Positions 1,060 through 20,000 of a stretch of 20,000 nucleotides of DNA are shown here, piece by piece. The position numbers and the translations under genes were made by a program. How positions within the stretch are numbered: position 1 is the first letter of the stretch; every line of letters starts with the position of its first letter. The DNA lies in the NCBI GenBank assembly GCA_008632985.1, contig QPGO01000068.1, positions 357,564 through 377,563 on the forward strand, written 5' to 3'. The notes beneath the pieces are model-generated. The model was not told where the DNA came from, searched no databases, and worked only from the letters and a program-made list of their open reading frames with translations. The stretch is from Psammoneis japonica (Eukaryota).

Positions 1060-1475
1060 GTTAGTTACTGTGCTTCAGAAGCTTCTGGACTTCATTCAAT
1101 CAATTGTTTTTGCATTTGTGCGACTACTCCTTCCTACAGTGGTACTTCGGGCTTGGAGGTCGGAATGTTGTGGGAACGAAGTGTGCGATGTACTTCTATG
1201 TACGATGTGCGGTGCAAACGTCGTGCTTGTTTTGTTCGTTTGGCTTTGTGCGCGCGGGGGGGGGGGGCGGGGGGTTGCAAATAAGTTGGTCGCGCACACG
1301 ACTGCTCCCCAACCTTTCATCTTTCATCCTTCGGTAGTTGTGCTTCCGCGCGGTGATTCGTTTTCTATTCTATTGTTTATTTCCTCGACTGTCACTCCAC
1401 TGCTATCGACTCTAACGAGAGACTACTAGTAGTTTCTATCTTCGTTAAAGGGATAGCCATCACTAAGACATTACT
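1060..1475. promoter_or_regulatory. Putative bidirectional promoter between the aminopropyltransferase and the kinase gene
   Basis: 416 bp between divergent ATGs. Contains a G12-C-G6 run (1256-1274) and a perfect 12-bp palindrome ACTACTAGTAGT (1422-1433). Confidence 0.5.
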
Positions 1476-4400
1476 ATGGATGCTCTCGTTAAAGAAATAT
1501 TTACTGCAGCGAACGTTGCGGAGGAAGAAAATTCCGAGAAAAAAGACGCGATGACTCGGTTGGAAGAGTGGCTGGATATGGAAGACAGCAGCGGCGCGTC
1601 GTCTGCAGCAATTACAACATGGACCCCGATGGATTCTCTAGCAACTTGCGACACTCCCCGCTTACTTATGGAAGACTGTGCACCGTTTTCTTGGAGGTTT
1701 TATCAAAGCGTTGGTCGCGTCGTCGTGGAGGCTTGGAACCCGGCTGCTGGCATAACAGATGATGGAGATGGGAAAGCTTTCGTCAACCGCAGCATTTTCT
1801 CGCCGCCATCGCCCAGTGACGCAGAAAATGCCCCACAGGATGTTTCTCTGTTTCAAATAAAATCAGTACGAGTGACAAGGTGGTTAAGGTATTGGATGGA
1901 CTTGAATGTGATGGGCGCAAGTTCTTCGGATACTGCATTGACGACGTTTTCTCAGCTTCTGCTAAGACACTGCGAAGGGAATACATCGACCACAGCAAGT
2001 TCCAGTGATGACGTAAACGAGAAAGAGAAGAACACTATGAATATTGGGAATGGGGGAGAACAACGCAAAGTACCCCGAGTTCATGTTTTGAAAGCACTGT
2101 TTCACCATATTGCAATGTTGCCTCAGATGCAACATCAAATCCATGTGTACACGCAGTCCCTACTCAAAAGCAACAGCAGCAGCCCCAACGGCTCGTCTTC
2201 CAAACTTTCCAATACTCGTCTGGAACAGCTTCAAGCTGCCAACAAAATGACAGATAAGCTGACAGCGGAGTTCGACCTGCATCGTCAACACTTAGAGGAT
2301 ATCTTGGGTGAATGGTATTCAGTCTGCAACTCCACTCTACGAGCCTCTTGTAAGGCACATCTTGGTCGTATTTGGCAAGAATTTATTTATGTTACCTCGC
2401 ATCGAAGTGGTGGCGTGGGTATGGGAAGAATGGAAAACACAAGTGCATGCGGGATAGATTTGACGTTGAGAGTTCTGAACCGTATTCTCCTCGGTGGCAC
2501 GGAATCGTCGTCGCTGAACTCATCCACTGAACATTTGCTTTTCGATGTACTTATTCCACTACACAAACCGTCTGGAATGATACTTTGGCGAGACCAAACT
2601 CCTCTTTTGGATCTCTACCACAAACCTCTGGTTCAATGCATCGGAACCATCCTTCAGAGAAACACTCTTCTTATTCCCAGGGTGGTGTCGCAAATGTTGC
2701 AACCCGACATCTGGCCCTCGAGTCAAGGCGTAGGCTCTGCTTCGGCAAACACACCCAAGGTTGTACTACTATTGCATGAAATCGACACATTTCTCAGTCT
2801 GCTATCAGTGGAAAAAGACAAGGCTGTGATTGATGCCTTTGGCGAAACCGTTGGACCTCTGACGGTGCGCTTGGCGAGCTGTATTTCATCGGACAATTCT
2901 CGCATGTCCGAACAGGCGTTGCAATTTTTCAAGAATGATGTATTTGCGTTTGTGATCAAGCATCATCTATTCGAGACTCTTCCGACACTACTCCGAGCGC
3001 TTTGTCGGACATCTGATCAAATGCAGTTGCCTTGGAACCCAACGGTGCGAAAAATGACTCGACTGGTTCTTCAGGAATTAGAGGGATACGACGAAGATGC
3101 CTTTGCGAAAGCTTGTCATTCCTTGTTCTCATCGGATCTCCCAAATCGAGCTCCTCCCAACGAGGATAAGAAAGAGGCTTCAATTAAACCAGCTGCTCGA
3201 GAAGGGACTGCAACGACAATGAACGAAAAGCAAGACAACGTAGCACCAGTCAAGGACTTTTCCTTGCGTGCAGGTATGGGGAGCTGGAAACCACCATCGC
3301 AGACACGTCGAAGTCACCCAATGAACAAAATGCTACCGCCTCCCGCTAGGTCACCCAGAAGTGGCGGAAAACAGCAACCACCATTGACTGTTACCGGCGT
3401 TGCACCATGGGCCGTGTCCTCCCAACCACCGGGTAGAGATTCTTCGGGTAATCCTCCCCTTACTGTAACGGGCGTTGCGCCTTGGGCAAGTCATCCACCA
3501 CCTTCAGGCTCTATGCGTCCTCCCAGAAAACGAGCCGTGGCTGCGAACGGATTACCACATCGACCAGGTCGCCCGCTCACGGAACAAAACAGCCAGTCAG
3601 CTACGCCCACACTTGATGATTCCGTGCCAACCCCAATCATAGAAGAAGAGGAGGAGGAAGTTGACAACAAGGAAAATGCCGGTCTGGCCAAGGTTCACTG
3701 GTACATGGACAAGCTCAAGCCAGATTCGTCGTCCGATCAAGACGAGGAAGGAACTTCGTCATGGGCACTGGCACAAATGTCAGAATCACCCACACTGCTA
3801 CCCACCTTAAAGTTTCACGATTTGGTGTTTGGTCAAGACCTGGGAAGCGGCGCTTTTGGAATTGTCAGATATGCGCGGCAAATTATCAAGAGCAAGACCC
3901 GCTCACACTGGCCCGAGTACGCTGTCAAGATTGTTAGCACTCAACGTATCGATGAAATGGGGTACGAACAATCGATCAATCGCGAAATCGCAACGCTGCG
4001 GCAAATGTCCCATCCAGGTATTGCTCGGCTCATTTCGTCCTTTCGTTTCCGTGATGGAGCCTACCTTGTGTTGGAATATGCCAGTGGCGGAGATTTGCAC
4101 ACGCTTCTAAAGAATAGTGGATCGCTGGATCAAGACTCTACAAAGTTTGTTGTTGGATCCATTGTAGCTGCATTGGGTAGCATACACGACATGGGCTTTG
4201 TCTACGGAGATTTGAAGCCAGAGAACGTCCTTATAACTGAGACAAATCATATCAAGCTAACTGATTTCGGTGGCTGTCGACCCGTGACATATCACGCTAA
4301 GGAACTGATCCGTTTCAGTGGTAAGAACGCTCTCAAGGAACTGCGCGATGGAGATTGGAAACCGCAAAACAAACCAAAGGACGGAAAGCCCAGCAGCACT

Positions 4401-5078
4401 TGGTCTGCTGGCAATGATAAAGATACAAACAATATGGATTTAGAAGAAGGGGAGGACGAAGAAGATCATAGAATAGAAGGCACCACGGCCTATCTTCCTC
4501 CCGAAGTTGTGATTGGTGCCAGACCCACACTCGCCGCGGATTCCTGGGCTCTCGGCTGCGTCATGTATCAGTGCCTCTCAGGCCGTCCTCCGCTCCTTGA
4601 AGACGACGATGAAATGACTCGAAACAAGATTGTTGCATTTCACCTGTCTCAGCAAGAGCATCATACCCGCGACGCTCTTTTTGAAGATGATCAAACGACC
4701 TTTACTCCGGAAGCACGAGCGCTGGTACTAGGATTGTTGCATCGCGAACCAGCCAGTCGACCAAACATGCCCCAAGTAGCCGAAGACCCATTCTTTGAAG
4801 GCGTGGATGTTCTTTCGTTGCACAAGCACCCTGGCCACCCCCTCGACGTGGGTAGTGTGGCACCCGTGGCAGACGCCAAGTGGTCCCGCAGGCAATTCAG
4901 CTCCATCTGGGCACCTCAGCCCGAGGCCTACATTATCAGCGCACCATCGAGTGACAAGACAATGGGCCCTTCTCAGAACGGCCCAATCCCAGAGGGAGAA
5001 GAAGCTAATGCGTTCTTCTCCAAGAGCCATCAACATTCGTCGTTTGGCAACATTCCAGAAAATGTCCCAGTTTCATAA
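1476..5078 (+). CDS. 1200-aa protein: PP2A regulatory subunit B56(B')-like helical domain, Pro-rich linker, AGC/PDK1-like Ser/Thr kinase domain
   Basis: Uninterrupted ORF. B56-like motifs at ~2440-3115: VLIPLHK, LYHKPLVQCI, WP...NTPKVVLLLHEIDTFL, CISSDNSRMSEQALQFFKN, WNPTVRKMT. Kinase motifs at ~3805-4800: LGSGAFGIV, YAVKI, LVLEYASGGDL, YGDLKPEN, DFG, GTTAYLPPE, DSWALGCVMY. Confidence 0.9.
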   Translation: MDALVKEIFTAANVAEEENSEKKDAMTRLEEWLDMEDSSGASSAAITTWTPMDSLATCDTPRLLMEDCAPFSWRFYQSVGRVVVEAWNPAAGITDDGDGKAFVNRSIFSPPSPSDAENAPQDVSLFQIKSVRVTRWLRYWMDLNVMGASSSDTALTTFSQLLLRHCEGNTSTTASSSDDVNEKEKNTMNIGNGGEQRKVPRVHVLKALFHHIAMLPQMQHQIHVYTQSLLKSNSSSPNGSSSKLSNTRLEQLQAANKMTDKLTAEFDLHRQHLEDILGEWYSVCNSTLRASCKAHLGRIWQEFIYVTSHRSGGVGMGRMENTSACGIDLTLRVLNRILLGGTESSSLNSSTEHLLFDVLIPLHKPSGMILWRDQTPLLDLYHKPLVQCIGTILQRNTLLIPRVVSQMLQPDIWPSSQGVGSASANTPKVVLLLHEIDTFLSLLSVEKDKAVIDAFGETVGPLTVRLASCISSDNSRMSEQALQFFKNDVFAFVIKHHLFETLPTLLRALCRTSDQMQLPWNPTVRKMTRLVLQELEGYDEDAFAKACHSLFSSDLPNRAPPNEDKKEASIKPAAREGTATTMNEKQDNVAPVKDFSLRAGMGSWKPPSQTRRSHPMNKMLPPPARSPRSGGKQQPPLTVTGVAPWAVSSQPPGRDSSGNPPLTVTGVAPWASHPPPSGSMRPPRKRAVAANGLPHRPGRPLTEQNSQSATPTLDDSVPTPIIEEEEEEVDNKENAGLAKVHWYMDKLKPDSSSDQDEEGTSSWALAQMSESPTLLPTLKFHDLVFGQDLGSGAFGIVRYARQIIKSKTRSHWPEYAVKIVSTQRIDEMGYEQSINREIATLRQMSHPGIARLISSFRFRDGAYLVLEYASGGDLHTLLKNSGSLDQDSTKFVVGSIVAALGSIHDMGFVYGDLKPENVLITETNHIKLTDFGGCRPVTYHAKELIRFSGKNALKELRDGDWKPQNKPKDGKPSSTWSAGNDKDTNNMDLEEGEDEEDHRIEGTTAYLPPEVVIGARPTLAADSWALGCVMYQCLSGRPPLLEDDDEMTRNKIVAFHLSQQEHHTRDALFEDDQTTFTPEARALVLGLLHREPASRPNMPQVAEDPFFEGVDVLSLHKHPGHPLDVGSVAPVADAKWSRRQFSSIWAPQPEAYIISAPSSDKTMGPSQNGPIPEGEEANAFFSKSHQHSSFGNIPENVPVS

Positions 5079-6072: not shown

Positions 6073-6373
6073 GTAGAACCAGTGTTGAACAGCGCAAGTA
6101 AGCGGTAACCTGTTGCTACCATACGCGCGTTCCTTCCAACAAAATCGCGCTTGAAGAATCATCAATCTGTGTGTCAGTTTGACCATTTTGTGGTGTTTAG
6201 TGACCGTTCCACTTTGAGACAAAAAAGCGGCGCGCGGACACCAAAAATCTTCAGAAGCACATGGCGTTCGCTGGTACAAAAATGACGTAGAATCTACGTA
6301 GGCACTGAAAAGTAAAACTCTTTTTCAATCCATATTTTTGTTGTTGCTGAAGTTGTTGTCAAGCTCTGTTACC
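6073..6373. promoter_or_regulatory. Putative bidirectional promoter and 5'UTRs for RPL18A and SUMO
   Basis: About 300 bp between the RPL18A intron donor and the SUMO ATG, divergent orientation. Confidence 0.5.
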
Positions 6374-7700: not shown

Positions 7701-7748
7701 TAGCTAGCTACAACTGCTCTAGAGCTCTACTCTCTCTACTAGAGCAGT
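7701..7748. repeat. CTAG-rich palindrome and inverted repeat at the host/repeat boundary
   Basis: TAGCTAGCTA palindrome (7701-7710), plus ACTGCTCTAG (7713-7722) / CTAGAGCAGT (7739-7748), a perfect 10-bp inverted repeat. Confidence 0.8.
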
Positions 7749-7789
7749 AATAGAGACAACATAGAGTGGCGCAGCACGCTCCTTCTTGT

Positions 7790-8841
7790 GCGCAGTTTCC
7801 CGACGTCACAGCTCTTCGCCTGCAATTTTTTGCCTCAGTGGCTGGAAGTGGCTCTTGCAGCTTGTTGGCTCTCATTTCTTAGTTCTCACTTGCATCTTCT
7901 GAGTGTTCCAACCATTCGGTTTTGTCATGGGAAGCAAACAACTCTCCAGCTGGCTCTTGGGTTTTGCCTGCTCACGTGTCGCACCCACAATTCCGTGGTG
8001 ACCCCCTGTCACTCCAGTTGTGTTGAGAGCCCCTGCAACCAACATTTTTCCTGGCCAGCACAGTGAGATCTTTCGTTTGTGCATGTCAAAAGGGGGTGGG
8101 AAAATGAAAAATTGATGTTTTACAAGTCTGGATTTCTTTGCTCTGCCTTGAATTGCTTGCATTCTGTGACCATGCACCGCATGATTGTCCATGTGCAACG
8201 TGCGCACTCAGCATTTTTTAGCCTTTTCATTGCCCCAGCTCTTCTGTCACTTGTTGCTTCAGTGGCTGTTTGATGCAAGTGCTTGAGACACTGAGGTCAA
8301 AGCCAGAAGAATGAGGGGGCACTCTTGCCAACACAAACAGCAGCCTGGTTTGTGGGGCCAGCCACACCACACTCTTCCTTGAGCTTGCATTTTGTCAACA
8401 AGACACCACACATGCAGCAGCTTGCCTCTGCTGCAATGTTTCAAAGCAGGAGGCTGTTTTGATGACAGTTGTTTGCTGAGAATGTGACATTTTGTGAGAT
8501 TGCCCAACAACTGGGAAATGCACCTTGCAATGCTGCAAAGGAACACCTGGCAAAAAGACCCCCTGTTCTGGGACAAAAAGTGGTGTGCATTTTCAAAATT
8601 TTTGTGCTCTGGCCCATGCTGCTGGCTGGTTTTAATTCGTTCAAATGAACTTCAATCACAACTTGCACACCCGCTGATGCTGGTCCCTTCACTGTTGTCA
8701 AGGTTGCTGTGGGGCCATCCATTTGCAAGTCAATGTCATGACACCACAGGCAGCGGGGAGAGGGGCTGGGTGGAACATTTTCACAGTCCAAGCAGTCTGG
8801 GCAATGCTCTTTTTTGATTTTGGGATGCACCTTGTTGTGCC
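7790..8841. repeat. Degenerate unidentified repeat/TE remnant, strongly depleted in both TpA and CpG
   Basis: Only ~4 TpA and very few CpG (none seen in 8221-8630). Minus-strand Cys/His-rich ORF fragments (8441-8830, 8259-8576) with no recognised family. Confidence 0.5.
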
Positions 8842-9029
8842 TGACAGGATGCCGAAGGTCAATGATGACAGATGCATGAAAGACTCCCCAAGCGCCAGGG
8901 ACTGTGATGACACGAGCACTGGCAGATGAGAAAGTGAGAGGCAGATCTCAGAGAGATCTGCTCGTCTGTCTAAATGGTCTGGTCATCATCCATGTGCAGT
9001 CTGTCCATCACATGACATGCAGACTGACA
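8842..9029 (-). repeat. Putative 3' LTR of element 1
   Basis: Minus-strand TGTCAG starts directly after the PPT at 9029 and a plausible ...CTGTCA end lies at 8842. Internal hairpins GCAGATCTC-aga-GAGATCTGC (8941-8961) and CAGTCTG/CAGACTG. The 8842 end is uncertain because the second LTR is not in the window. Confidence 0.6.
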
Positions 9030-9038
9030 CCCTCCCCT
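9030..9038 (-). other. Polypurine tract of element 1
   Basis: AGGGGAGGG immediately followed by TG, about 160 nt after the pol stop. Confidence 0.75.
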
Positions 9039-9197
9039 GATCTGCAATGTCTCAAAATAGAAGACAGTGTAGATCAAAACAAGAACAGGGATGATGCAAA
9101 TGGAGCAACCAGAAGAAGGACACCAAAGGTGTCCAAGCCCAATGCGCATCAAACAACGGGGCAATGCGCAGCAGGAGAGGCTGCCATGGAAAAAATG

Positions 9198-12100
9198 TCA
9201 ATGGCAGTGTCCCATCACACGTTGAGTGTGGCGAGTGTGGAGCACCCACCCAAGAGCCTTGGCAAGGTCATTGCTGGGGTTGACAATGCCAGGGATGTGT
9301 CTGGTGACAATCTTGCCCGCTTCCTTCCATTCTTGAATCGCGAAGAACTGAACCTCAATGTGGTGCGAACGCTCAGTCGGAATCGAATGATTGATGATCT
9401 TGATGGCCGATTCGTTGTCAACATGCAAGGGGGTTGGCTTCATTTGGGAATGACCAAGGTCATGCAGCACATGGCGGAAGCAAAGAACATGCTTGGCAGT
9501 GGCACCAGCAGCATGGAATTCTGCTTCTGTAGAACTCGCAGCGGTCACCGACTGCGTCTTGCAATGAAAGGAGATGGCAGCACCAGCCAACATGCAAGCA
9601 CATCCCATCATAGAATGTTGATTACGAAGATCATTTCCACACACAGCATCAAGGAAGGCAACAAGTTGATGGTCACACTCAGGAGTGGGGAATGATGGGA
9701 GAGGAGCGGGGAATGACGGGAGAGACGGATCGGGACTCAAGCATTCACACGGATGGGCAGGGAGGCTCGGGTCACGTTTAGATTTCTTGTGGTTCAATTC
9801 CCAATGTTTGGCACATCGGAGACACTTGCGTGCACCCTTGAGTGCATCGCAGTGCACTGCCGCAGGGCAAGTGGAGAACTTGGAAAGGGCAGTGATGGCA
9901 TGGCCAATGTCGAGTCGACAGACAACATGTGCATGCAACAGCTCACCAGGGAGGGTGTGGCATCCAAAACCAGCAGCTTGTTGCAGCTCCACATGTTCCG
10001 GTGTACCTTCAGCAGGACCAATGTCAGTGTAAAGATCTCGAACAGAATCCACCGGAATTGGAGTCGCCTTGAAGTCATCAAGCAGTTCTTCATCACTTGG
10101 CGCAGACCAACCGCATGAGAGGCAAACACGGTCAATGTAATTGTAGATGGCGACACCAATTGAATCATCATGCTGATGGACATCCACACCATTGAATTCC
10201 TCCAGGAGGCCAAGGTGCTTGAAAGGCGGAGCAGTTTCCGAGTCCAGTTGAAGGGCTTTGCCAATCCTGTCACAGATTGCATTGGCAATGGACTCCCCGG
10301 GGCAAGCAATGGCAAAGTCATCAACCTGTTGAAGGAGCAAAATTTTGTGTCCTTCAAATGCAGCAGAGCAGATGCATTTGTCGTGAGCAGTGTTCCGGAA
10401 TAAAAGATTCACATCAGATGAGACACCATCAATGTGATTCTCCCAGAGCATGCCGGCTTCTGGGTGTCCTTGAAGAGCATGTTGCATGGGAAGTGCCATG
10501 CTCCTGTCCAACTCCTTTCCAAAGTGAGACTCATGCCAAGTCGCATGTGCATCGTCAACAGCAACATGGACAGGATGTGACGGGCAGGGAGAATGGGCAC
10601 AGGCATCGCGGGCATCACTGCCATGTGCTGGACAACCCATTGCAGCTGCCAGGGCAAAGAACATCTGTTGGATGGGTTGTTCAACACAGGAGGAGCATGT
10701 TGAACAAAGATGATGGAGAACAAATGCAGCACGAGGGGATCCGTTGCAACACTGACGAGAGCACCGCGCACTGTCATGTTTGAGGTCATGTTGCCAGTGT
10801 GGTCTCAGTGCAACTGCATCCTTTGGATGTTTGATGGGAGCACCAAACATGCCCAACTCATGAAACTGGTCAAGTTGTTTAAATTCACCCATGCGCCATT
10901 CAGGCCAAGTGTCCAATTGCTTGAGTCGATGGCGAGTGAAGGTGCCCAAGGCTTGTTCCTCTGGGGCAATTGCGCGGGAGGAGATTGCATGGACTTTGAC
11001 GACACCATTGTTGTGGTCAACATGTGCAGGTGGCAGGACGTTGTCATCATCAATGGCTTCGAAATCAGCACTGGGATGGCGCACCGCAGCAATGGCACGT
11101 GTGTCGGCCTGTGCAAGCTCCGGGACATGTTCATCATCAGGGTCCAGGGTGGGGGAGAAGATGTCATGTTCCATCAGAGCATGTTGGAGAGCTTGAGAGT
11201 CCAAGCAACGTTCTGGCGTGAATTCAATTTCAAAATGTGTCTTGCCAGACTCACGCAACTGCTGGAAATGCTTGACAGCATCATCACGGGTAAAAACTGG
11301 TTGATGATCAATCGATGCAACACACGCGCCTTTGATCTTGTTGCGGGTTGCCTTCAAGTTCGAGAAAAGATGATCAGTGGGGGAACCACGTTTGATGTCC
11401 GAGACGAAAACACGTTGGCACAGATCATCCACAGCCAATGAGAAGCCATGAGAGGGATCCGTGAAAGGTCCTTTCATGGCACGTGTGATGGTCTTGGCAA
11501 AAGGGTTACCATGAAAGTGAAATTCATCCACAGTGGTCTCTTCAGTGTCGGCAGGGAGGGCATCACCAGCCTGAGCACGTTGCAAATGAACAACATTCGG
11601 GGGAATAGAGTCGTGGGGTAAATCATTCATCCCCTCATCACATCTGATGTGCTTGGCCAGCTCAACACGCGATGTCTCAGTGTCGCACCACAAAATGTTC
11701 TTGGTGGCATCCGGAAGGCATCCCAAGAAAATCCCTTTGCGTGATGCGGTCCGGAATTTTGCCGGACGGTGATTCAAAGCACGCACCCAAACGCGACAAC
11801 CAAACGTGTGGAAGTTCCGAAAATCATCCTTCTGACCAGCAGCAAGTGCAATCGGAGCAGCAGTCTGCCCCCGGGATGGCATGGCATTCTTGATCCGAAT
11901 GAAGTGATGGAAAGCATGGGGCCAAAACTTGATGGGTAAATCCGCACCAACAAGCATCACCTGAATGGCATTGGCAATGGTCAAATGACTCCGTTCAACT
12001 GGGCCACTCTGATTCGAAGCGTCTTTTCCAGTGGGACGAATTGCACAATGAAAGTCATCCTCGAAGAGTCGCCGAACTTCTGGGTTCTGACATGACTCAC

Positions 12101-14325
12101 CTCCTTGATCCACAAATGCATGTTTGTCTGGACATTTTGGCGAGTGCTCTTCCAGAAAGTGGCGAATCCAATTCAAAGGGGTTGCCTTGGAGACACGAGT
12201 CGCACCATGGAGATGCTTCGTTTTATGATCATAAATGGCAATCCAACAAGTCTCGCCATTCAATCCAACACAGTCCTTGGTGCGCTCCGAGTTCTTGGAG
12301 CGTAGGCCAGAGAAGGAAAAATCAATCGTAAGGCCTTGGCATGGTTGGGTGGCAGTGAGAGTGGTGTTCGGACCGGCAGGTTCCTTCGTCTGCTTGGCTC
12401 GCATGCATGTGGGACAAGTGTCGAGAGGAGAAGTTCCGTGGGCAAACTTGGGGACGCCATCAACATGTTCATGGGCATGATGAAGGCAGTGATCACTCGG
12501 ATGACCAAGTCGCTGATGCCACAAAAGACGTTCCGTGTCGGCCTTGAGAGACTGGACAGGAATGTTCTTCTCAGCATGCTTCTCGAAAGGAACATCTTGA
12601 CAGACACGGGGGATCAACTTGCATTCATCACGAAGAGCTTCATGTTGGTGGGTGCGACAAGTCTCAATCACACACGCAGAGACCGCTTCACACTCATTGG
12701 CAAAAGAAGGATCAGCAGTCTTGAGGCGCTCGACAGATGCATCCAGTTCGTCGTTAGATTCCGGGAGAATGAGAGGGTGAGCAAAACATTTTCCATTGAT
12801 CAATTTTCCATGAATGACAACATCCTGACTCTTGCGCAATCGGTGTCGTGCAACAAACTTGCAGGCACCAAGATCATGGAACTTGAGAATGCAATCGACA
12901 TTGCAATCTGTGAAACGAGAACCATTTTGACGAAGGAGGAGTCGCTCATCGACCAACGTAGATTGGATCTGTGGGTGGCAGCATGCACGGACCTCAACAT
13001 GGCCATCAGAGTTCTCTGCAGGGATGCGAAGACAGCCGAATCCAACTGGGACAGCTTGGTGGCCAAGGGCCGGGTTGACAGCAAGGGGACAGGGATGGGA
13101 CGGAGTGAAGTCTTGGCAGCAATGGAGGAGGTCACGGTCGCCTGCACATGCAATGTTGGCACCTGCATCCAACTGAGCACAACGTTGATGCCACAAAAGG
13201 CGTTCCATGTCGGCCTTGAGGGATTGGACGGGAATGTTCTTCTTGGCGCACTGCTCAAATGGGACATCTTGAAATGCTCGGGGAATCAACTTCCTTTCCA
13301 TGCAGAGAGCATCATTTTGGCATGCACGATGTGTTTCAATCATGTGGGCCGAGACTGCTTCACATTCATCCACAAAGGAGGGGTCACTTGCCTTGAGGCG
13401 CTCGACAGATGCATCGAGCTCATCATGGGATTCTGGGAGAATGAGTGGGTGAGTGCAACACTTGCCATTGGTCAATTTCCCATGAATGACGACATCCTGA
13501 CTCTTGCGCAAATGATGCCGTGCAACAAACTTGCAAGTGCTGAGGTCATGGAACTTGAGGATGCAACCAACATTGCAATCCATGCGACGGGCACCATCCT
13601 GTTGGAGCAGCAATCGTTCATCAACCAAGGTAGATTGGAGCTGTGGGTGGCAATGCGCACAAATCTCAACATGTCCATCAGAGTTCTCCGCAGGCATGCA
13701 AAGACATCCAAAGCCAACTGGGACAGCTTCATGTCCAAGAGCTGGATCAACAGCAAGCGGGCATGGGGCAGAAGGAGCAAACGCCTGGCATCAATGTAGG
13801 AGATCACGATCTCCAGTGCAGGCAACATCAGCACCAGTGTCAAGTTGAGCACAGCGCTCATTTGGGGCAAACTTGACACCATTGACAGCGCAGGCAGTGC
13901 GGAGCAGATCTGGTGGATCCAAGTCATCATCATGCAGTGAGCCAAGCGGGGCAATGCAGACAGAATTCACTGCGGTGAAACCATCCTCAACAGCAATGTC
14001 GTCATGGGTGAGATCAACGAACTTGGCAAATTCACATCCCTCTAAATCTTCCCTCCCCTGTTCTAAAGAGTCCAGAACAGGATCAATCTCCAATGTGCCA
14101 TCAGGGAGAACAGGATCGTCATCAGGCAACTTGGTGGTGTCAGGAGAGACCTTCGAGTCGGGGGTGCAGTCCGCATCAGTCGTCGAAGAAAGAGGCAGCA
14201 CAGTGGCAGATGACGAGACGGTTGGTCCCTCTTTCACAGTCATCCCGCTGACATTGGTCTTGTCTCAGTGGGCAGAGAATGGGCTGCATCGGAGATCCGA
14301 AACTAGCTGCGACGGCCCGACTGAA
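9198..14325 (-). pseudogene. pol: pol of element 1 (two protease copies, integrase, RT, RNase H)
   Basis: LDTGA and LDAGA protease motifs; WHQRLGH...CPTC; TIDF / VDQGGE / GPVERS (DDE integrase); ALQGHPEAG and LLQQVDDF (RT); SSTEAEF, VDNES and HIEVQFFAIQEW (RNase H). Same frame throughout, with two in-frame TGA stops (~14265 and 13791-13793), probably from CGA. Confidence 0.9.
12514..13857 (-). repeat. In-frame 672-bp (224-codon) tandem duplication of protease plus pre-integrase linker
   Basis: TGATGCCACAAAAG at 12514 and 13186. The protein block CAQLD[T/A]GA...QSLKAD[M/T]ERLLWHQR occurs twice. Confidence 0.95.
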
Positions 14326-15769
14326 AATCTGAAGACTGGACACCAGCACTGGGTGGAGAATCAGATGGGGCTTGATGAGGCGGCAACAAACCTTGTGGTC
14401 CTTGAAATTCAGAGGCTTGCATGGCCGCTTCGCGCTTCAAAAATTGACAAAAACGCACATGGAAGCCCTCATTGTATGGGTTGTTGTTCAAGACAGGACA
14501 GTCATGGAACAAGTGCTCGTCAGAACAAACAAGGCATGGTTTCTTGGAGGCCTCTGTGGGAGCAACCTTGAGTTTGTGTGCCAAAGCTGAGCAGACATGA
14601 TGAAGGAGACGATCTTCATCTTCTGTGGAAGGTGCGTCAAGGTCATTCAATTCAGCACAGAGGGAGTCAAAGGTGTCCTCGGGGGAGTTGTCGATGTTGG
14701 TGGCTTCAGGCAGCTCGTCTGCATCCTCTGCAATGGGAGGGACATCCGGAATGGTCAAGGAATTGACATCGGCAGTGGTGCGACGCGCATCGCCTGGGTG
14801 TCGATCCCATGTGCGGCATGGATTGCAAGGAGTCGCACGGGTTGCAAGAGATGGACTGTCCAACTGACGAAGGAAGTCAGACAGAGTCTCAACAATCTGT
14901 GCACCCGTGTGCTTCTTGAGCATGGCAGGAGACTTCCTTTCGTCCCTGGCAGCACGGGATAAGAACTTGGAGCATTTGGTGTTCTTGATAAAAACAGTCA
15001 TCTCTTGAGAGTCATCCAACGTAGAGTCCGCATTAAAGATGTGAGCACGCAGCTGTAGAAAATCCTTGAAACACAAGCGACAGTCCGTCAATGACAGATT
15101 TCCTTGAATGGGGCAGGAATCTACCAAACCAGCAGCCTCGTGATTGAAAGCCGGGTGGTTCTCGCAGACAATTTGCTTGAGAGCCTTGCAGCCATTGCCA
15201 TGGCATGAGGCAACAATCCGATGATGCTTGCTGTTCTTGGGGAACACATCAGACTTGGAAAGGATCTTGTGAAGGGAACTTTGTGCTTCTTTACAATGAA
15301 CATACATTCGTTGGGGCAAGTCATCGTCTTTGCCATTGCCAATCTCAAAACCCTTCTCACCACCATGGTCCTTGGTGAAGCACCACAAAGGATGCACGCA
15401 GCATCCTGAGTCAAAGGAGTGACGTTGAAAATTTTGGTGCCATGCACGTGTCCCAGCGGGAGAATCATCATGGCAGATTGGAGGTTCCCTGAATGGCATC
15501 TTCTGGTCAGGGGCCGAGCTCATTGTAAACAGGGCACCATCATTGAGAATGATGCGGTCAGACGCATCAACATGGTGGCGGAATCCATGGCCACAATGGA
15601 CTGGGGAGCTCTTCAGGGTGACGGCACCATGTTCTTTGCAGTCGTAGCATGTGCAAACATCAGGAGGCAGGGTGTCAGGATTGAAGAGACATTTGAATGC
15701 TGTGGAAGATGCAGGAGTTCCAGAGGTCTTGCCAGAGGAGTCACGAGTCAACAACCGAGTCTGATTCAT
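14303..15769 (-). pseudogene. gag: gag of element 1 (5'-truncated or interrupted)
   Basis: 488-aa ORF directly upstream of pol with a zinc knuckle CLVCSDEHLFHDC, ending SDFQSGRRS*. Strongly Tyr-poor and His/Cys-rich. Confidence 0.8.
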
Positions 15770-15814
15770 GGATGACGCTTCCGGTCATGGATCTCTTCTT
15801 CCGGAAGAAATGTC

Positions 15815-16023
15815 TGTTGAGTCTTCTAGCGACAGTAATCGGAGTGACACACACGACCGTTAGGTCATAATGTCATCTCCAATCCCTCGTGAGATCTTCT
15901 CACAATTCGTATCTTTGGCGCATCTCATTGTCCCAAAACTGCTTCTTGTCATCCTCTGTTGCATTGTACAACCTCAAGAGAGTCCTGAACTCTCCATCCT
16001 ACACAGTGCATTGTTGTATCCCA
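15815..16023 (+). repeat. Putative 5' LTR of element 2
   Basis: Starts TGTTGA, where the composition switches, and ends ...CCA two nt before a TGG-starting PBS-like motif. Alternative starts at 15811 or 15871. Confidence 0.5.
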
Positions 16024-16025
16024 AG

Positions 16026-16038
16026 TGGTTACGACCCC
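16026..16038 (+). other. PBS-like motif TGGTTACGACCCC
   Basis: CA-ag-TGG arrangement typical of copia LTR/PBS junctions, 180 nt before the gag ATG. Priming tRNA not identified. Confidence 0.5.
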
Positions 16039-16109
16039 AATCCACGCACCGGTGTCAACTCGTAACGGAGTTGCTGCCACTCGTTCGTCTCGTTACAGAC
16101 GACATCCTG

Positions 16110-16193
16110 TCCAACGGCGATCTTCTACATCGCAATCCAACGGCGATCATCTATGTCGCAATCCCCACCTGCTAATCGATCCTCTATGTCGAA
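16110..16193 (+). repeat. 26-bp tandem repeat (2 copies plus a partial third) in the element 2 leader
   Basis: TCCAACGGCGATCTTCTACATCGCAA, TCCAACGGCGATCATCTATGTCGCAA, then CGATCCTCTATGTCGAA. Confidence 0.85.
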
Positions 16194-16205
16194 TCATCCA
16201 CAACC

Positions 16206-19200
16206 ATGTCCATGGATCCTGATGCCGTCAAGATGTTTGCTGAGGCCTTCGCCAAGATGCAAACCTCGACCAACCCTCCTACGATCCCCACGCCGCTTCG
16301 CGGCGGTATCCACCACTCTCATGGAGTGCATCTGGGTGGTTCGGCTCTGAACAACAAGCACGAGCAGACCGACACCCGCACCCACCGTTTTGCCTCGCAA
16401 CGTCGCCATCCGAAAGCTGTCGACTCTGTCGAGCAATCTCTCAGAGATCAACTCGCTTCGGCAACCACATCCAAGTTCAACGGCCAGATTGAGTTGTCCA
16501 ACGGTTCCAGTGCTGAACTGGACAAAGACCACTTCGTCAAGACCATTCAGGACTTGATCGAGTCGCACGGACAAGAAACTTTCTACCATCTCAAGAAAGT
16601 CGACGGCAAGGTCGTGCACCTTTTTGATCATCTTCACGCCTTCACTGTCAAAGACCTTGAGAAGGAACATGAGACCCGTGTGGTGGCCACAGGTGACGAA
16701 GGCTACGATCAGTGTGAAATCGATGACATTGGCTTGTCACAACTCATCATCAAGTCGCGCATCACCGAAACCTTCCGTGAAAAGATTGAAACCAAGTTCA
16801 ATCACTTGAAGAACTGCAAGGATCTTCCGGGGTCTGTCTCATTTATGATGGCTCTGGACACCTGCAACGCCAGTGCTCTGGTTGACGTCAAGGCCGCCAA
16901 GGAAAAGTTGAACGACTTAACTCTGGACACCTGCCCTGGTGAGGACTGCACCGAGCTTGCAACCGAAGCTCTGCGCCTGCTCAAGATCATGCAGACGGAC
17001 TGTGTGTCACCAGTTGAAACTGGGTCTGCCATTTCATCTAAGGTGTCAAAGACATCCTCCGAGTTTTTCAATCGTCAAGTTTTTGCCAAGCTCGACTCCG
17101 TCAAGCGCTTGGAGCGCAAATGTTGCTTGCGTGACCCGGCAGAAGTCCCCAAGGATGCCGACTGTGCGGATCTTGGACCTGTTGGCCTTGTTGGCTGGAT
17201 CACCAAGACCCGTGGCGAACTCATTAGCGATGAAGATTGGCCTGCCTTAGCAGCCAAGCTCCCGGAATCCAACCTCGCCAAGGACAACTCGGAAAAGCAT
17301 TGCTGCGGCTGTGGCAAGGTTGGGCACACCAAACGCACGTGTCCTGCCTGCAAGGAGCAATGCAAGAAGGACAAAAAGGGCACGGCGGACAAGTCCAAGG
17401 ATGACCCTCCGGATGTCCGGAAGACCAACCCTTCCAAGAAACCACCCAAGCCGGCCTGGCGTTTCGTTCACAAAGGTGCCACTGTCACCGACGAGAAAGG
17501 CATGACCTGGCACTGGTGCGACAAGTGTGTGAACAAGGAAACGGGCAAGAAGGGCATGCATCAAGGCCACTCCTCTGCTCAACACACCGGGAAACCGTCT
17601 GTCAAAACCGAAACCACCGCTGTGGCAAATTTATCTGCTGTGTCGGACCCCTCTTCAGGCATTCCTTTTGGTCCTCCCGAGCAGACAACGTCTCCACCTA
17701 CAGACGAACCCTCTGACCCTAACGAGCTGGTTCACTGCGGCATGTGGTGTGCACCTGTGGACGACTCTTTGAGCTCGACTCCAGTGACTACGACCGTCAC
17801 GTTCACTCCTGCTCCATTGGCCGAGAGGGAGACTGCCGTGGCCAAACCCGCTCCCATCTTGGTTGAAACAGTTGACCCCAAAGACGCTGATGATTGCTCC
17901 AAGCACTCCGACGCTCACTCCTCTTTTGACTCCCTGCCGTCAGCTGTCGAGCCATTTCCGGCCTGTGCCATGCATGAGATTCAAAATCCGGACGTGTTTT
18001 ATGACACGATCGCAACTCACGTGGAAGGTCTGTCCGACGACGTGTTGGACGATCTCGTTTCCGGGGCAAGCATCCCACCTTTCGAAGACAGCTACGAGCA
18101 CTTACCTCCAAGCACCCAGTGTCGCGGTTTCGAATTTTACGATCCCGAACCCCAAGATGTTGATTGTGGCGTCGAGGAGGCAACGCCGAGCTCTCGTCTT
18201 GAGCTCTTCTGGAACTTCTTGAAGCTCCAAGTTTTCTGGCTGTTTGCCATGTTCTGGGAAACGGCACCACACATTTGCTGTGCGCCGATTCCTGTCTTGC
18301 CTCGTCGCATGCGCCGCAAGGCATTCATCCCAACCATTCACGGTTTCCCCTCTACCTGGATGGTGCTGACTGGAGCTGTCATGGTCTGGGCGTCTGTTTT
18401 CAATGGTCAGCTTCCCACGTGTCCATTCTCCAATGTCCCCTCTCGCTTCTCCAAAGCCAGCTCTCAGGTCCACTCGATCATTGAAGAACTGGACGACAAG
18501 ACAGTGTCAGATCCGGGCAGTTTGGTGGAACACAACAAGATCAAGGCGCGACAAGTGCTTGCCGAATTTGTGGAGCGCGATCCGGACCATTGTCTGAGCA
18601 AGAAATTCATGCAGCTCTGGGAGAACGACGTGTGCTCTTCCCCAGGCCGCTGCATCCCTCCAGCTCTAGAAGACCCCGAGTCCCACTTCGACACCTGTGA
18701 TTCAGAGGAAGCCCTCGGCCCGCTCCCGACCGAGCCGAGCCACTGCTTTGATGCGGTTGAGGAGCTCTCTCCGGACTGTTTTCGTTTCGACGAGCTGTCC
18801 ACCAAGTTTGGTTTCGTGGACACCACTCCATGGCAAGACCCTGTGAAGCTTCTCCAGGCAGCTGCTGACGGAACTGAAGCCCATCCTGCTCATGCCTCTG
18901 TGCAGGTGTTGACAGGCCAACGTTCTTTAGCACAACTCGCCGCCGACCCGCAAGCTTTGCTGAGCCCAGCACATGAGCGCCACACCGTCACATGCGACAC
19001 TGGCGCATCCTTGGCCATTGCTTACGATGAAAACGACTTTGTCGGACCTCTGACGATCCCTGATGGCCCATTGAAGCTTGGGGGTCTAGCAAATGGCTTA
19101 ACCATCGCCGGCATCGGACCCGTCTCCTGGGTTTTCCACAACGAGGATGGCTCTGAGCTCGTCGTCAAGACGATGGCGCACCATGTGCCTCAGGCCGGAC

Positions 19201-20000
19201 AACGTCTTCTATCCCCACAACGCCTCCACAGCAAGGAACATGGCGTGACAGGAAAATGTGAGGGAGACGAGGACTCATTTCGAGTGCACATTGATGGCGC
19301 CGGTTCGCTCAAGGTCGCGCACGCGTCAAATCACTTGCCGGTTGCGTCTGTGACCAACGGGGTGGCACCCGCTCCTCAAGTCAATCTGTCTGTGTTGCAC
19401 GAGGACAACCAGAACCTCACCACCGGTCAGAAGCTCCTTCAAGAATGGCACTTCAGGTTTGGTCACCTGAACATGCCACGCATCCAAGGCCTGCTTCGGG
19501 CCGAACCTTTTCTCCGACCCAAATTCAAGCATGCTTCGCGTTGCGACATTCCGCGGTGCGAGGTGTGCGAATGTGCCAAAGGACATCGCCGAACCCTCAA
19601 GTCTGCCAAACATGCGGCTACTCCAGAGCGTGAGGGTGCTCTTCGAGCCGAGCATCTACGCCCAGGCCAAGCCGTCAGCGTGGATCACTTCGAATCCCGT
19701 CTCCTCGGCCGAACCTGCGACTCCTGCGGGAAGGCCTCGTCCCAGCAATGCAAAGGAGGCTGCATTTTTGTGGATCATGCCTCCGGTTACCTGCATGTTG
19801 AACACCAACTTGGTTTCTCTGCTGTGGAAACGGTGCGAGCAAAGCAAGCGTTTGAAAAGCACGCGATGGACCACGGTGTCATCATCCAAGAATTTCTTGC
19901 CGATTCTGGCACTTTCAAGGCCAGTGCTTTTGTGCAACACATGCGACAGCACGAACAACGTCTACGTTTTTGCGGAACCAACGCCCACCATCAGAACGGC
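16206..20000 (+). CDS. gag-pol: gag-pol polyprotein of element 2 (apparently open for 1265 codons to the window end, hence absent from the ORF track; probably non-functional through missense hypermutation)
   Basis: MSMDPDAVKMFAEAFAK start; zinc knuckle CCGCGKVGHTKRTC (17301-17342); protease VTCDTGAS (18987-19010); WHFRFGH...CEVC; integrase VSVDHFES, GCIFVDHASG, LADSG and AHHQNG, all in the frame of the ATG. Confidence 0.88.
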   Translation, partial: MSMDPDAVKMFAEAFAKMQTSTNPPTIPTPLRGGIHHSHGVHLGGSALNNKHEQTDTRTHRFASQRRHPKAVDSVEQSLRDQLASATTSKFNGQIELSNGSSAELDKDHFVKTIQDLIESHGQETFYHLKKVDGKVVHLFDHLHAFTVKDLEKEHETRVVATGDEGYDQCEIDDIGLSQLIIKSRITETFREKIETKFNHLKNCKDLPGSVSFMMALDTCNASALVDVKAAKEKLNDLTLDTCPGEDCTELATEALRLLKIMQTDCVSPVETGSAISSKVSKTSSEFFNRQVFAKLDSVKRLERKCCLRDPAEVPKDADCADLGPVGLVGWITKTRGELISDEDWPALAAKLPESNLAKDNSEKHCCGCGKVGHTKRTCPACKEQCKKDKKGTADKSKDDPPDVRKTNPSKKPPKPAWRFVHKGATVTDEKGMTWHWCDKCVNKETGKKGMHQGHSSAQHTGKPSVKTETTAVANLSAVSDPSSGIPFGPPEQTTSPPTDEPSDPNELVHCGMWCAPVDDSLSSTPVTTTVTFTPAPLAERETAVAKPAPILVETVDPKDADDCSKHSDAHSSFDSLPSAVEPFPACAMHEIQNPDVFYDTIATHVEGLSDDVLDDLVSGASIPPFEDSYEHLPPSTQCRGFEFYDPEPQDVDCGVEEATPSSRLELFWNFLKLQVFWLFAMFWETAPHICCAPIPVLPRRMRRKAFIPTIHGFPSTWMVLTGAVMVWASVFNGQLPTCPFSNVPSRFSKASSQVHSIIEELDDKTVSDPGSLVEHNKIKARQVLAEFVERDPDHCLSKKFMQLWENDVCSSPGRCIPPALEDPESHFDTCDSEEALGPLPTEPSHCFDAVEELSPDCFRFDELSTKFGFVDTTPWQDPVKLLQAAADGTEAHPAHASVQVLTGQRSLAQLAADPQALLSPAHERHTVTCDTGASLAIAYDENDFVGPLTIPDGPLKLGGLANGLTIAGIGPVSWVFHNEDGSELVVKTMAHHVPQAGQRLLSPQRLHSKEHGVTGKCEGDEDSFRVHIDGAGSLKVAHASNHLPVASVTNGVAPAPQVNLSVLHEDNQNLTTGQKLLQEWHFRFGHLNMPRIQGLLRAEPFLRPKFKHASRCDIPRCEVCECAKGHRRTLKSAKHAATPEREGALRAEHLRPGQAVSVDHFESRLLGRTCDSCGKASSQQCKGGCIFVDHASGYLHVEHQLGFSAVETVRAKQAFEKHAMDHGVIIQEFLADSGTFKASAFVQHMRQHEQRLRFCGTNAHHQNG

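Follow-up and report, generated by a model that had tools for sequence, protein, structure and literature searches.

Why does the dinucleotide TpA almost vanish from the transposon-bearing part of a diatom contig, and why does it keep its normal frequency in the gene nearby? The window analysed here (the whole stretch of 20,000 nucleotides from Psammoneis japonica) poses this question at a sharp border. An initial annotation, made from its letters alone, had answered it with a repeat-restricted change of TpA to TpG or CpA, proposed as a genome defence that runs in the direction opposite to fungal RIP. As a whole, this interpretation is partly supported. The following features were distinguished in the window, with positions counted from its first letter:

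1467..5078, plus strand: host gene used as internal control, a 1203-aa open frame with B56 (PP2A regulatory) and Ser/Thr kinase domains
7763..9098, no strand assigned: TpA-depleted and strongly CpG-depleted stretch without recognisable coding content, delimited by composition and border
9099..14261, minus strand: element 1, a TpA-hypermutated polyprotein of Ty1/copia type with gag, integrase, RT and RNase H in this order, delimited by tblastn with homologues
12494..13852, minus strand: tandem duplication within the gag region of element 1 (copies 12494-13180 and 13166-13852, offset 672), found by purine/pyrimidine word match
14315..15691, minus strand: N-terminal ORF or domain at the upstream end of element 1, TpA-depleted and conserved across its copia lineage, delimited by tblastn and tblastx
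15827..16185, no strand assigned: island with normal composition separating the two divergent elements (15 TpA in 359 nt)
16206..20000, plus strand: element 2, from a second copia family unrelated to that of element 1 and present with its N-terminal 1265 residues, TpA-hypermutated, delimited by homologues

The control gene was matched by the Pfam domains Pkinase (3e-50) and B56 (8.5e-23), and its named homologues, with 42-52% identity, are all from diatoms. Its TpA content is normal, with 22 TpA in the first 600 nt of the kinase ORF, and it lies 2.7 kb away from the depleted DNA. Element 1 has the domain order of Ty1/copia elements, with the integrase upstream of an RVT_2-type reverse transcriptase, and is 44-57% identical to diatom copia proteins. 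Pfam recognised gag_pre-integrs (residues 412-467), SH3_retrovirus (652-720) and RVT_2 (986-1223), the latter with 28.8 bits, which is under the Pfam cut-off of 31.6. Residues ~111-346 of the homologues match element 1 twice, at the tandem duplication, which was the sole repeat returned by the purine/pyrimidine word match. For the ORF upstream of element 1, tblastn matched N-terminal portions of proteins from Nitzschia and Fistulifera (e.g. residues 179-655 of P0035, 2e-58), and tblastx found a counterpart upstream of the polyprotein in the related loci L064, L019, L006, L004 and L001. Homologues of element 2, for example from Fragilaria crotonensis, are 35-43% identical to it, with as much as 98% of the query covered; polyproteins of this family comprise ~2100 aa and element 2 continues past the end of the window. 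Both elements are highly repeated, with similarity to 3527 short-read contigs of one public run (X1) and a summed depth of roughly 900-4700, compared to 60 in unique DNA. No LTR pair or direct repeat flanking the elements was detected in the window by exact seeds, purine/pyrimidine 22-mers or transition-tolerant local alignment of the element ends, the best score of which (62.5 versus a shuffle maximum of 49.5) was not located at the ends. Self-BLAST detected no LTRs in 16 of 77 related loci, including L019, L064, L037, L038 and L042.

The depletion of TpA in the window is real. The ratio of observed to expected TpA (o/e) is 0.08-0.14 across 7763-15826 and 16186-20000 and 0.60 in host DNA; the depleted blocks contain 72 TpA in 11877 dinucleotide steps versus 311 in 7761 in the host (Fisher odds ratio 0.146, p = 1.3e-63), and the loss amounts to ~82%. 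We counted 7 TpA in 7790-9197 (o/e 0.08; CpG o/e 0.26), 37 in 9198-15770 (o/e 0.10), none in 10441-10860 and 26 in 16321-20000 (o/e 0.14; CpG o/e 0.85), compared to 312 in host positions 1-7789 (o/e 0.60; CpG o/e 0.98). The values of 37, 26 and 0 reproduce those of the initial annotation, which had also correctly described the adjacent host gene as spared. Its description of the depletion as extending over 7790..20000 holds for the elements and the flank but fails for the island at 15827-16185, where TpA (o/e 0.61) and CpG (o/e 1.05) are undepleted inside the affected domain. Neither 7763-9098 nor this island had blastn or tblastx similarity to the 77 related loci, and the island also showed none to the other flank; 26-nt tandem repeats are found at 16110-16191.

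The left border is sharp and lies between 7762 and 7763: up to this point there are ~15 TpA per 200 nt, and the next ones follow at 7880 and 8121. One X1 contig bridges the border, covering 1269-8924 with 7 letters different from the window. Of the 3527 X1 contigs, 689 are at least 99% alike to the window. As X1 is possibly the source from which the window was assembled, this agreement is not independent proof. On the depleted side, 144 copia proteins gave zero tblastn matches in 7763-9098, and the 168-aa ORF at 8441-8947 has no Pfam match, as is the case for ORFs in the depleted flanks of two related loci, L037 and L019. The X1 depth of 72-83 (60 in unique DNA) indicates that 7763-8924 is near single-copy, and its TpA o/e of 0.08 makes it as depleted as the elements. 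Together with the undepleted island, this leaves the restriction to repeats that was initially claimed without support.

Only three dinucleotide classes depart from the host. In strand-symmetrised values for transposon versus host DNA, TA falls to 0.11 from 0.59 and CG to 0.64 from 0.99, CA/TG rises to 1.52 from 1.14, and all remaining dinucleotides differ by at most 0.12, with AA at 1.14 in both. The deficits of 329 TA and 277 CG (606 together) are approximately balanced by gains of 281 CA and 281 TG (562). Decay of CpG to TpG or CpA is a separate process superposed on the loss of TpA: CpG o/e in the three depleted blocks is 0.26, 0.58 and 0.85, and TpA saturation is equal in all three, indicating that TpA is lost fast in comparison with the decay of CpG. 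TAA and TAG, with densities of 7.6 and 9.7 per kb otherwise, are reduced to 1.9 and 1.8 per kb. Sense-strand totals of TG and CA are 708 and 607 in one element and 288 and 315 in the other; as they point in opposite directions, we do not claim a strand bias for the window.

Comparisons with homologous proteins and between copies established which way the sequence changed and that both strands were affected. All seven peptide motifs with Cys or His in place of Tyr that had been quoted initially were found in the translations. Tyrosine makes up 0.3% of element 1 versus 1.9-5.0% of 97 homologues and 0.6% of element 2 versus 2.5-3.9% of 47 homologues, and in both elements Cys and His are raised. 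At 24 conserved Tyr columns, element 1 has 2 Y, 11 C, 9 H and 2 F (20/24 Cys or His), and at 15 such columns element 2 has 1 Y, 7 C, 4 H, 2 F and 1 S (11/15), giving 18 Tyr>Cys and 13 Tyr>His replacements in total. At other conserved columns of element 1, Trp was kept in 15 of 15 cases and the remaining residue classes in 59-94%. Where conserved Thr and Ile columns of element 1 were altered, Thr>Ala (9) and Ile>Val (5) were most frequent, as might result from A>G at the first codon base. Between the copies of the tandem duplication (75.7% identity over 687 aligned nt), 19 double transitions connect CA with TG, compared to 0-3 for each other class of double transition. Among the 40 of 1422 variant places listed against other genomic copies (38 of them in the transposon part), other copies have TA in at least four places where the window has TG and in at least four where it has CA, and at least five adjacent pairs read TG in other copies and CA in the window. 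The change is thus specific to each copy, and the same Cys and His residues are not shared by all copies, which the initial annotation had named as a finding that would refute it. These observations support the conclusion that depletion arose by TA>TG and TA>CA on both strands of copies that once were normal in TpA.

The sequence context of the change was resolved in a related copia family. We used 54 copies from metagenomes, which may derive from more than one organism and from species other than that of the window, and took 39 non-depleted copies as the reference for polarising them. Among the five copies with the strongest depletion, A>G affected 196 of 465 sites after T (42%), but only 43 of 782 after A (5.5%), 41 of 934 after C (4.4%) and 24 of 762 after G (3.1%), and T>C affected 121 of 437 sites before A (28%), versus 4.2, 7.1 and 4.5% before C, G and T. 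The 5' T is therefore strictly required. Transversions in these copies reached 1.1-2.9%, transitions outside TpA 3-8% and mutated TpA sites 25-58%, so that the excess at TpA over other transitions that had been predicted was indeed observed. The base following TpA also had an influence, with mutated fractions of 42% for TA[C], 33% for TA[T], 22% for TA[A] and 19% for TA[G]. In the same five copies, 173 TG outcomes exceeded 113 CA outcomes on the sense strand (p = 5e-4), a count that includes L044 and L038, which represent one lineage. A double change to CG is almost absent, with one case among the six commonest outcomes per copy listed for 11 depleted copies. Runs tests on 14 copies showed mutated and intact sites, as well as TG and CA outcomes, to be randomly interspersed; in these copies, mutated sites did not form blocks, and TG or CA outcomes did not follow each other in a strand-coordinated manner, which does not indicate a processive single-strand mechanism. 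Copies changed independently of each other, their outcomes being often discordant (e.g. 28 same and 19 discordant between L037 and L019). In L037, 65 of 73 scored TpA sites were mutated. Depletion is graded among related copies, from 0.09 to ~0.5, and even close relatives (80-91% nucleotide identity) include normal as well as depleted copies. Copies with more transversions have a larger share of their TpA mutated (Spearman 0.71, n = 54, p = 2e-9; 0.66 once 8 near-duplicates are dropped), a correlation that could partly reflect subfamily structure in the consensus. The correlation of CpG decay with TpA mutation across the family is positive but weak (rho 0.30, p = 0.03).

Several known activities are incompatible with this pattern. 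ADAR enzymes, which to our knowledge are confined to animals, prefer U and A over C and G as 5' neighbour; dsRNA editing of this type is rejected because A>G after A stays at a background of 5.5%. Sense-strand-only ADAR editing is contradicted by T>C, which accounts for 113 of 286 outcomes in the related family and for 13 of 31 Tyr replacements in the window. A Pol-eta-type error-prone synthesis, one of the agents initially considered, has WA as its hotspot, ApA included, and is disfavoured by the unchanged ApA o/e of 1.14 and the comparison of 43/782 sites after A with 196/465 after T. In contrast, TadA and ADAT2-ADAT3 target an A with U as its 5' neighbour (U33-A34 of the anticodon loop), and TadA/ADAT is the sole natural deaminase family known to us with a strict requirement for a 5' U or T. 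The natural substrates of these enzymes are RNA loops, while engineered TadA acts on DNA; the stage-specific A-to-I mRNA editing of filamentous fungi also derives from TadA/ADAT deaminases.

We consider it probable that the two copia families and ~1.2 kb of low-copy DNA were brought close to saturation by a host mutator that converts TpA to TpG or CpA on chromosomal DNA. Since TpA is self-complementary, both outcomes correspond to an A:T>G:C transition, with the A affected on one strand or the other. The mutator would act after integration and accumulate changes over time, presumably as a host enzyme directed at silenced or foreign DNA. A TadA/ADAT2-like adenine deaminase would be the likeliest candidate, as a reasonable guess. 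Slow accumulation on chromosomes is favoured because the mutated fraction tracks divergence, depletion is graded and the low-copy stretch 7763-8924 is affected as well. The unexplained 359-nt island counts against this explanation, as does the fact that all clearly identified affected DNA is retroelement, and a perfectly symmetric attack on duplex DNA would not predict the excess of sense-strand A>G.

The last two points would be accounted for if editing instead took place during retrotransposition, i.e. if a packaged adenosine deaminase edited A in the genomic RNA (sense TA>TG) and in the minus-strand cDNA (sense TA>CA), so that insertions arrive already hypermutated, in analogy to the restriction of retroviruses by APOBEC3 but with adenine as target. 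Since both outcomes can arise in this way, the initial reasoning that changes on both strands imply a process on genomic DNA is not compelling, although it correctly contradicted sense-only ADAR. In line with such editing, the identifiable targets in the window and the 77 loci are all copia elements, the left border is sharp, and copies were struck independently and to differing degrees. However, near saturation (65 of 73 sites in L037, ~82% in the window), spread over both outcomes in random interspersion, is much for a single replication cycle of an element that is then dead, and the relation of mutated fraction to transversion divergence is unexpected for a one-off event. Moreover, the non-coding, low-copy stretch 7763-8924 lies outside the repeated part of element 1 and is equally depleted, and in the alga Bigelowiella natans the precedent concerns integrated DNA viruses in asexual lines (bioRxiv 10.64898/2026.01.13.699255). 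We therefore regard editing during retrotransposition as unlikely.

Other sources of the footprint appear less probable still. At the self-complementary TpA, A:T>G:C looks the same whichever partner is modified, so that sequence alone cannot distinguish a modified adenine from a modified thymine, and a TET/JBP-type dioxygenase could form 5-hydroxymethyluracil (5hmU) at TpA in silenced repeats, followed by T>C through mispairing or error-prone repair. In dinoflagellate DNA, 5hmU prefers TpA. In this SAR lineage, 5hmU made by TET/JBP homologues was reported to be enriched in repeats and to silence transposable elements (PMC11572971). However, we found no evidence for 5hmU in diatoms or for a strong T>C mutagenicity of 5hmU (the term 'mispair' occurs 0 times in the available text of PMC11572971), and the preference for a pyrimidine at +1 on the adenine strand is simpler to understand as a property of an adenine-directed enzyme; modification of thymine is accordingly improbable. 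Even more so is a by-product of heterochromatin repair, in which T:G mismatches from 5mC deamination would call in non-canonical mismatch repair and a Pol-eta-type polymerase that mutates nearby A:T pairs. CpG decay does accompany the loss of TpA (o/e 0.26-0.85 versus 0.98 in the host) and the two are weakly correlated in the related family, but ApA is unaffected (o/e 1.14 versus 1.14; A>G 5.5% after A versus 42% after T), and element 2 is TpA-saturated at a CpG o/e of 0.85, which shows that the two processes are uncoupled. The least credible scenario dispenses with a mutator altogether and attributes the depletion to selection against UpA in elements that are active, to a TpA-poor donor of the DNA, or to an artefact of assembly or sequencing. 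Frames that are open over 1275-1530 codons resemble the result of purifying selection at first sight, but they are expected anyway, because TA>TG/CA creates no stops and removes TAA and TAG; such long frames can therefore persist in dead elements. Against this scenario stand the destruction of conserved Tyr residues, with RVT_2 falling under the Pfam cut-off, the range from normal to depleted among relatives at 80-91% identity, the TA retained in other genomic copies and the border reproduced by X1 contigs.

The initial annotation had stated that no pathway of this kind was described. For diatoms, and likewise for retrotransposons, this agrees with our search of the full-text literature, largely outside subscription journals, which found no report of TpA-directed hypermutation; a title search beyond diatoms returned genome-editing papers only. 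Before a preprint on B. natans in 2026, we knew of no cellular process that turns A:T to G:C specifically at TpA in selected parts of a genome. According to this preprint, two regions of integrated viral DNA had acquired 231 mutations, 230 of them A>G or T>C (bioRxiv 10.64898/2026.01.13.699255), and these changes were all at TpA (Mettrop et al., bioRxiv 10.64898/2026.01.13.699255). In mutation-accumulation lines the rate was ~6e-7 per site per generation, and one of the affected regions was single copy and transcriptionally silent (bioRxiv 10.64898/2026.01.13.699255). The text available to us mentions neither diatoms nor retrotransposons (bioRxiv 10.64898/2026.01.13.699255).

The footprint in the window matches this targeted mutator signature, reported once before and in an unrelated alga, and may be its diatom counterpart. 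The two cases share the exclusive occurrence of A>G and T>C at TpA, with TpG or CpA as the strand-dependent result, the confinement to DNA that is foreign or selfish while the ordinary DNA of the host is spared, and a long-term footprint of TpA depletion with gain of CpA and TpG; TpA-depleted coding sequences of B. natans are enriched in reverse-transcriptase and DDE domains. In our data, too, only A>G and T>C are in excess besides the separate CpG decay, the mutated A follows T and the mutated T precedes A, and host DNA beyond the border at 7762/7763 is spared, with the spared island left unexplained. The hosts belong to different groups, B. natans being a chlorarachniophyte (Rhizaria) and the window deriving from a diatom (Stramenopiles). 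The measured targets in B. natans, according to the same text, were NCLDV and virophage inserts rather than LTR retrotransposons, its active regions are mildly depleted (Rho TpA 0.45, NCLDV) whereas the window is near saturation (0.08-0.14), and rates were measured directly there, whereas the window provides a footprint alone.

Fungal RIP is similar in being a dinucleotide-specific transition hypermutation that inactivates transposons, affects both strands and stops near the edge of its target. RIP, however, changes C>T at CpA, which makes TpA and leaves AT-rich DNA full of stops, whereas in the window TpA is destroyed, GC is slightly increased and stop codons cannot arise. It also requires duplicated sequence and a RID-type enzyme and takes place at a premeiotic stage, while one affected stretch of the window is low copy. 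With TpA o/e at 0.11 and CpA/TpG at 1.52, the direction is opposite to RIP, as had been recognised initially, and RIP is rejected. The vertebrate retroelement footprints of APOBEC3 (G>A) and ADAR (A>G) are comparable as dead, hypermutated copies fixed as a record of deaminase activity. These enzymes attack a single strand while the element replicates and leave strand-coordinated clusters, whereas both outcomes are randomly interspersed in the related copia copies.

Our analysis adds, from the window and from the graded copies of a related family in environmental contigs, a TpA-only footprint in diatoms, another lineage of SAR, on LTR retrotransposons and to saturation. In combination with B. 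natans, this argues for a widespread defence rather than the curiosity of one alga. It is conceivable, albeit still doubtful, that diatoms and chlorarachniophytes have in common an enzyme-driven defence in which adenine deamination at TpA, preferentially at TA followed by a pyrimidine, attacks foreign or silenced chromosomal DNA, saturates transposons before CpG decay and kills them by missense changes only. Loss of TpA, gain of CpA/TpG and replacement of Tyr by Cys or His provide a search signature for further cases, and TA followed by C or T is a site preference against which candidate enzymes can be tested. Since TAA and TAG are removed and stops are never made, very long open frames persist in dead elements, on the antisense strand as well, and gene callers will report them as proteins. 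If such a shared defence exists, killing by missense changes alone, notably from Tyr to Cys or His, would fill genomes with 'zombie' reading frames, and its agent would be a natural DNA adenine deaminase working on chromatin; base editing, too, could make use of an enzyme with this activity on chromosomal DNA. If it is ancestral to SAR, it would constitute a second major family of repeat-directed DNA mutators besides fungal RIP.

The TpA depletion seen by the initial annotation was confirmed. Recomputed TpA counts gave the same values, with observed/expected ratios (o/e) of 0.08 (7790-9197), 0.10 (9198-15770) and 0.14 (16321-20000) compared to 0.60 in the host part of the window (1-7789). With block borders taken from the list of TpA positions (7763-15826 and 16186-20000), 72 TpA were present among 11877 steps in the depleted blocks and 311 among 7761 in the host part (odds ratio 0.146, p = 1.3e-63). 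The left border is abrupt, TpA being dense up to 7762 and next found at 7880 and 8121. Directly outside the depleted domain lies a TA- and CT-rich low-complexity stretch with ctat/ctag/ctac motifs (7681-7762), which contains a 15-nt inverted repeat (7708-7753) and may mark the insertion site.

Features of the window
1467-5078, plus strand: host gene, one frame of 1203 codons without interruption, B56 and protein-kinase domains
9099-14261, minus strand: element 1, Ty1/copia polyprotein, placed by similarity to homologues
12494-13180 and 13166-13852, minus strand: tandem duplication of the gag region of element 1, 672-nt offset, homologue residues ~111-346
14315-15691, minus strand: N-terminal ORF before the element 1 polyprotein, also present in this lineage in Nitzschia and Fistulifera and on several metagenome contigs
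16206-20000 (window end), plus strand: element 2, of a second copia family, first 1265 residues; the family polyproteins have ~2100 aa
8880-9695, plus strand: spurious frame antisense to element 1, 271 codons
12306-13799, plus strand: spurious frame antisense to element 1, 497 codons

All named relatives of the host gene are diatom proteins (42-52% identity), which makes the host a diatom whose close relatives are absent from the protein database searched. The gene's fusion of a PP2A B56 regulatory subunit (residues 273-556) to a Ser/Thr kinase (from residue 787) looks conserved across diatoms, because 119 of the best 120 of 281 homologues (E ≤ 0.001), from many diatom genera, share this architecture. 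The two elements are arranged head to head, ~360 nt apart, and a search within the window found no LTRs around either of them. Five metagenome loci related to element 1 (L018, L049, L004, L001 and L071) carry the same sequence at the start and end of the contig (45-211 nt, 95.6-100% identity), which fits assembler collapse of two LTRs and thus indicates that LTRs do occur in the wider lineage.

After strand symmetrisation, only three dinucleotide classes departed from the host part: TA (o/e 0.11 vs 0.59), CG (0.64 vs 0.99) and CA/TG (1.52 vs 1.14), while ApA was 1.14 in both. The deficits of 329 TA and 277 CG are balanced by surpluses of 281 CA and 281 TG, indicating that CA/TG arose from two sources, CpG decay and TpA loss. 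The CpG share presumably reflects ordinary decay of methylated CpG. For TpA, the direction TpA to TpG/CpA proposed initially is supported by the Tyr columns of both elements. At 24 columns with Tyr in at least 80% of 39 homologues, element 1 has Tyr twice, Cys 11 times, His nine times and Phe twice; Trp was kept in 15/15 columns and other residue classes to 59-94%. Element 2 kept Tyr at one of 15 such columns (17 homologues), with Cys at seven and His at four, and none of 144 copia homologues was Tyr-poor, the lowest Tyr content being 1.9%. At conserved columns of element 1, counted irrespective of the preceding base, Thr was most often replaced by Ala (9) and Ile by Val (5), as A>G at the first codon base would give. 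Replacements of Arg by His (6) or Gln (5) fit CpG>CpA. A mutational reading of the depletion is well supported.

The sequence context of the changes was tabulated in relatives of element 1. Metagenome contigs were scanned with an alignment that combined element 1 with 18 homologues; this gave 77 loci, whose matched parts had a median TpA o/e of 0.62 and reached as low as 0.10 (L037), 0.18 (L044), 0.19 (L038), 0.30 (L019) and 0.31 (L042). In a related family of 54 loci with 80-91% nucleotide identity to one of them, L064 (L048 was left out as non-colinear), changes were polarised against the 39 copies whose TpA o/e was ≥ 0.55, by their majority base, and rates were taken from the five most depleted copies. 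There, A>G occurred at 196/465 sites after T (42%), compared to 43/782 after A (5.5%), 41/934 after C (4.4%) and 24/762 after G (3.1%); T>C occurred at 121/437 sites before A (28%), compared to 4.2%, 7.1% and 4.5% before C, G and T. At 73 scored consensus-TA sites, L037 had TG 43 times, CA 22 times and still TA three times. In L037 (2653-4114) and L019 (1-1618), TpA loss extends into flanks that are not homologous to L064 and gave no Pfam match. Among the outcomes listed, double CG was almost absent from depleted copies, as expected if the first hit removes TpA on both strands. In the 11 most depleted copies, counted per strand, A was edited at 42% of opportunities with C as the next base, compared to 33% with T, 22% with A and 19% with G. 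The TpA surviving in the window agree with this preference: ATAT (0 vs 19 in the host part), GTAC (1 vs 26) and ATAC (3 vs 45) are the scarcest contexts, CTAA and TTAA the richest.

Separate copies were hit independently. In 14/14 copies tested, mutated sites were mixed at random with intact ones, and TG with CA outcomes, and outcomes frequently differed between paired depleted copies, except for L044/L038, which form one lineage and agreed at 33/33 sites. On the sense strand, TG outnumbered CA (173 vs 113, p = 5e-4, with L044 and L038 both counted). Within the element 1 duplication, CA in one copy faced TG in the other at 19 of 687 aligned positions, each other double-transition class occurring 0-3 times. 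These discordances are as expected from independent resolution of ancestral TA in each copy and imply ~38 ancestral TpA in 687 nt, a normal density; the 55 transversions between the copies indicate that the duplication is old. One contig from X1, a public sequencing run, joins 12835 straight to 13518 (682 skipped), like a copy without the duplication. Comparison of the window with X1 contigs at ≥80% likeness (3527 contigs) showed that both elements are highly repeated. The differences were mostly transitions (A>G at 330, G>A at 322, C>T at 265 and T>C at 237 places); each type of transversion was seen at 24-48 places. Among the 40 of 1422 variant places that were detailed, 38 of them in the transposable-element part, other copies had TA at at least four places where the window has TG and at least four where it has CA; at least five adjacent pairs were TG against CA in the window, and at least seven places were CpG-related. 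The same Cys/His residues are thus not shared by all copies, the case that the initial annotation had set against its own proposal; other genomic copies read TA or TG instead.

The suggestion that repetition triggers the process was not supported. The stretch 7763-8924 is depleted as strongly as the elements at a depth of 72-83 compared to 60 for unique DNA (run X1), and a single X1 contig spans from the host gene through 8924, so that this stretch falls beyond the repeated portion of element 1. Its depletion is one reason why we infer slow accumulation on chromosomal DNA. Depletion was also graded across copies rather than all-or-none, and copies further from the consensus by transversions had a larger mutated TpA fraction (rho 0.71, n = 54; 0.66, n = 46 without near-duplicates). 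Less easily reconciled with this reading are the retroelement nature of all identifiable depleted DNA, the sense-strand TG bias in the related family and an undepleted island of 359 nt (15827-16185), with normal TpA o/e (0.61) and CpG o/e (1.05), precisely between the points where both saturated, divergently oriented polyproteins begin. Tandem repeats of 26 nt lie at 16110-16191, just upstream of the element 2 ATG, and the island may be a 5' region that was spared, a remnant of host DNA or an insertion that came later. CpG o/e was lowest, and decay thus strongest, in 7790-9197, the block with the 7763-8924 stretch (0.26); it was 0.58 in 9198-15770 and 0.85 in 16321-20000. As TpA loss was equally complete in all three, which are probably of different ages, it must proceed much faster than CpG decay.

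Both the enzyme behind the TpA loss and its stage of action are inferred. Pol-eta acts in WA context and ADAR prefers a 5' U or A. Pol-eta-type error-prone synthesis, one of the mutators considered initially, does not match the data because ApA was untouched, and ADAR does not match for the same reason. A thymine-directed route via 5hmU would give the same sequence outcome, and 5hmU is a silencing mark of repeats in dinoflagellates according to excerpts of PMC11572971, but we consider this route very improbable. RIP is a functional analogue that acts in the direction opposite to the TA loss in the window. Same in kind is the hypermutation in Bigelowiella natans, where, according to excerpts of a 2026 preprint (bioRxiv 10.64898/2026.01.13.699255), 231/302 nuclear mutations in mutation-accumulation lines fell into two integrated viral regions, with 230/231 being A>G or T>C changes, every one of them at TpA, and the rate was ~6e-7 per site per generation. 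In B. natans, reverse-transcriptase and DDE domains were over-represented among TpA-depleted coding sequences, and an ADAT2 homologue was proposed as candidate; these excerpts do not mention diatoms, stramenopiles or retrotransposons. In full-text literature, including excerpts of a diatom DNA-methyltransferase paper and a 2025 diatom TE preprint, we found no report of TpA hypermutation in diatoms. The initial annotation knew of no such pathway in diatoms, and the B. natans work has to be set beside that statement: the occurrence in diatoms, the LTR retrotransposon targets and the saturation are new, but for this kind of process a single description exists, a very recent one from another SAR lineage.

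No frame can gain a stop codon by changes from TA to TG or CA, which also erase TAA and TAG, so that long frames persist in dead elements. From the host part to the depleted part, stop density per kb changed from 7.6 to 1.9 for TAA, from 9.7 to 1.8 for TAG and from 18.0 to 23.0 for TGA, making TAA and TAG four to five times rarer (7763-20000, all frames). Although its RVT_2 domain scores below the Pfam cut-off, the catalytically wrecked element 1 retains a frame of 1530 codons because the process makes no stops, and the erasure of TAA and TAG likewise accounts for the long spurious frames on the opposite strand. Spurious long frames on both strands are thus a trap for gene prediction.
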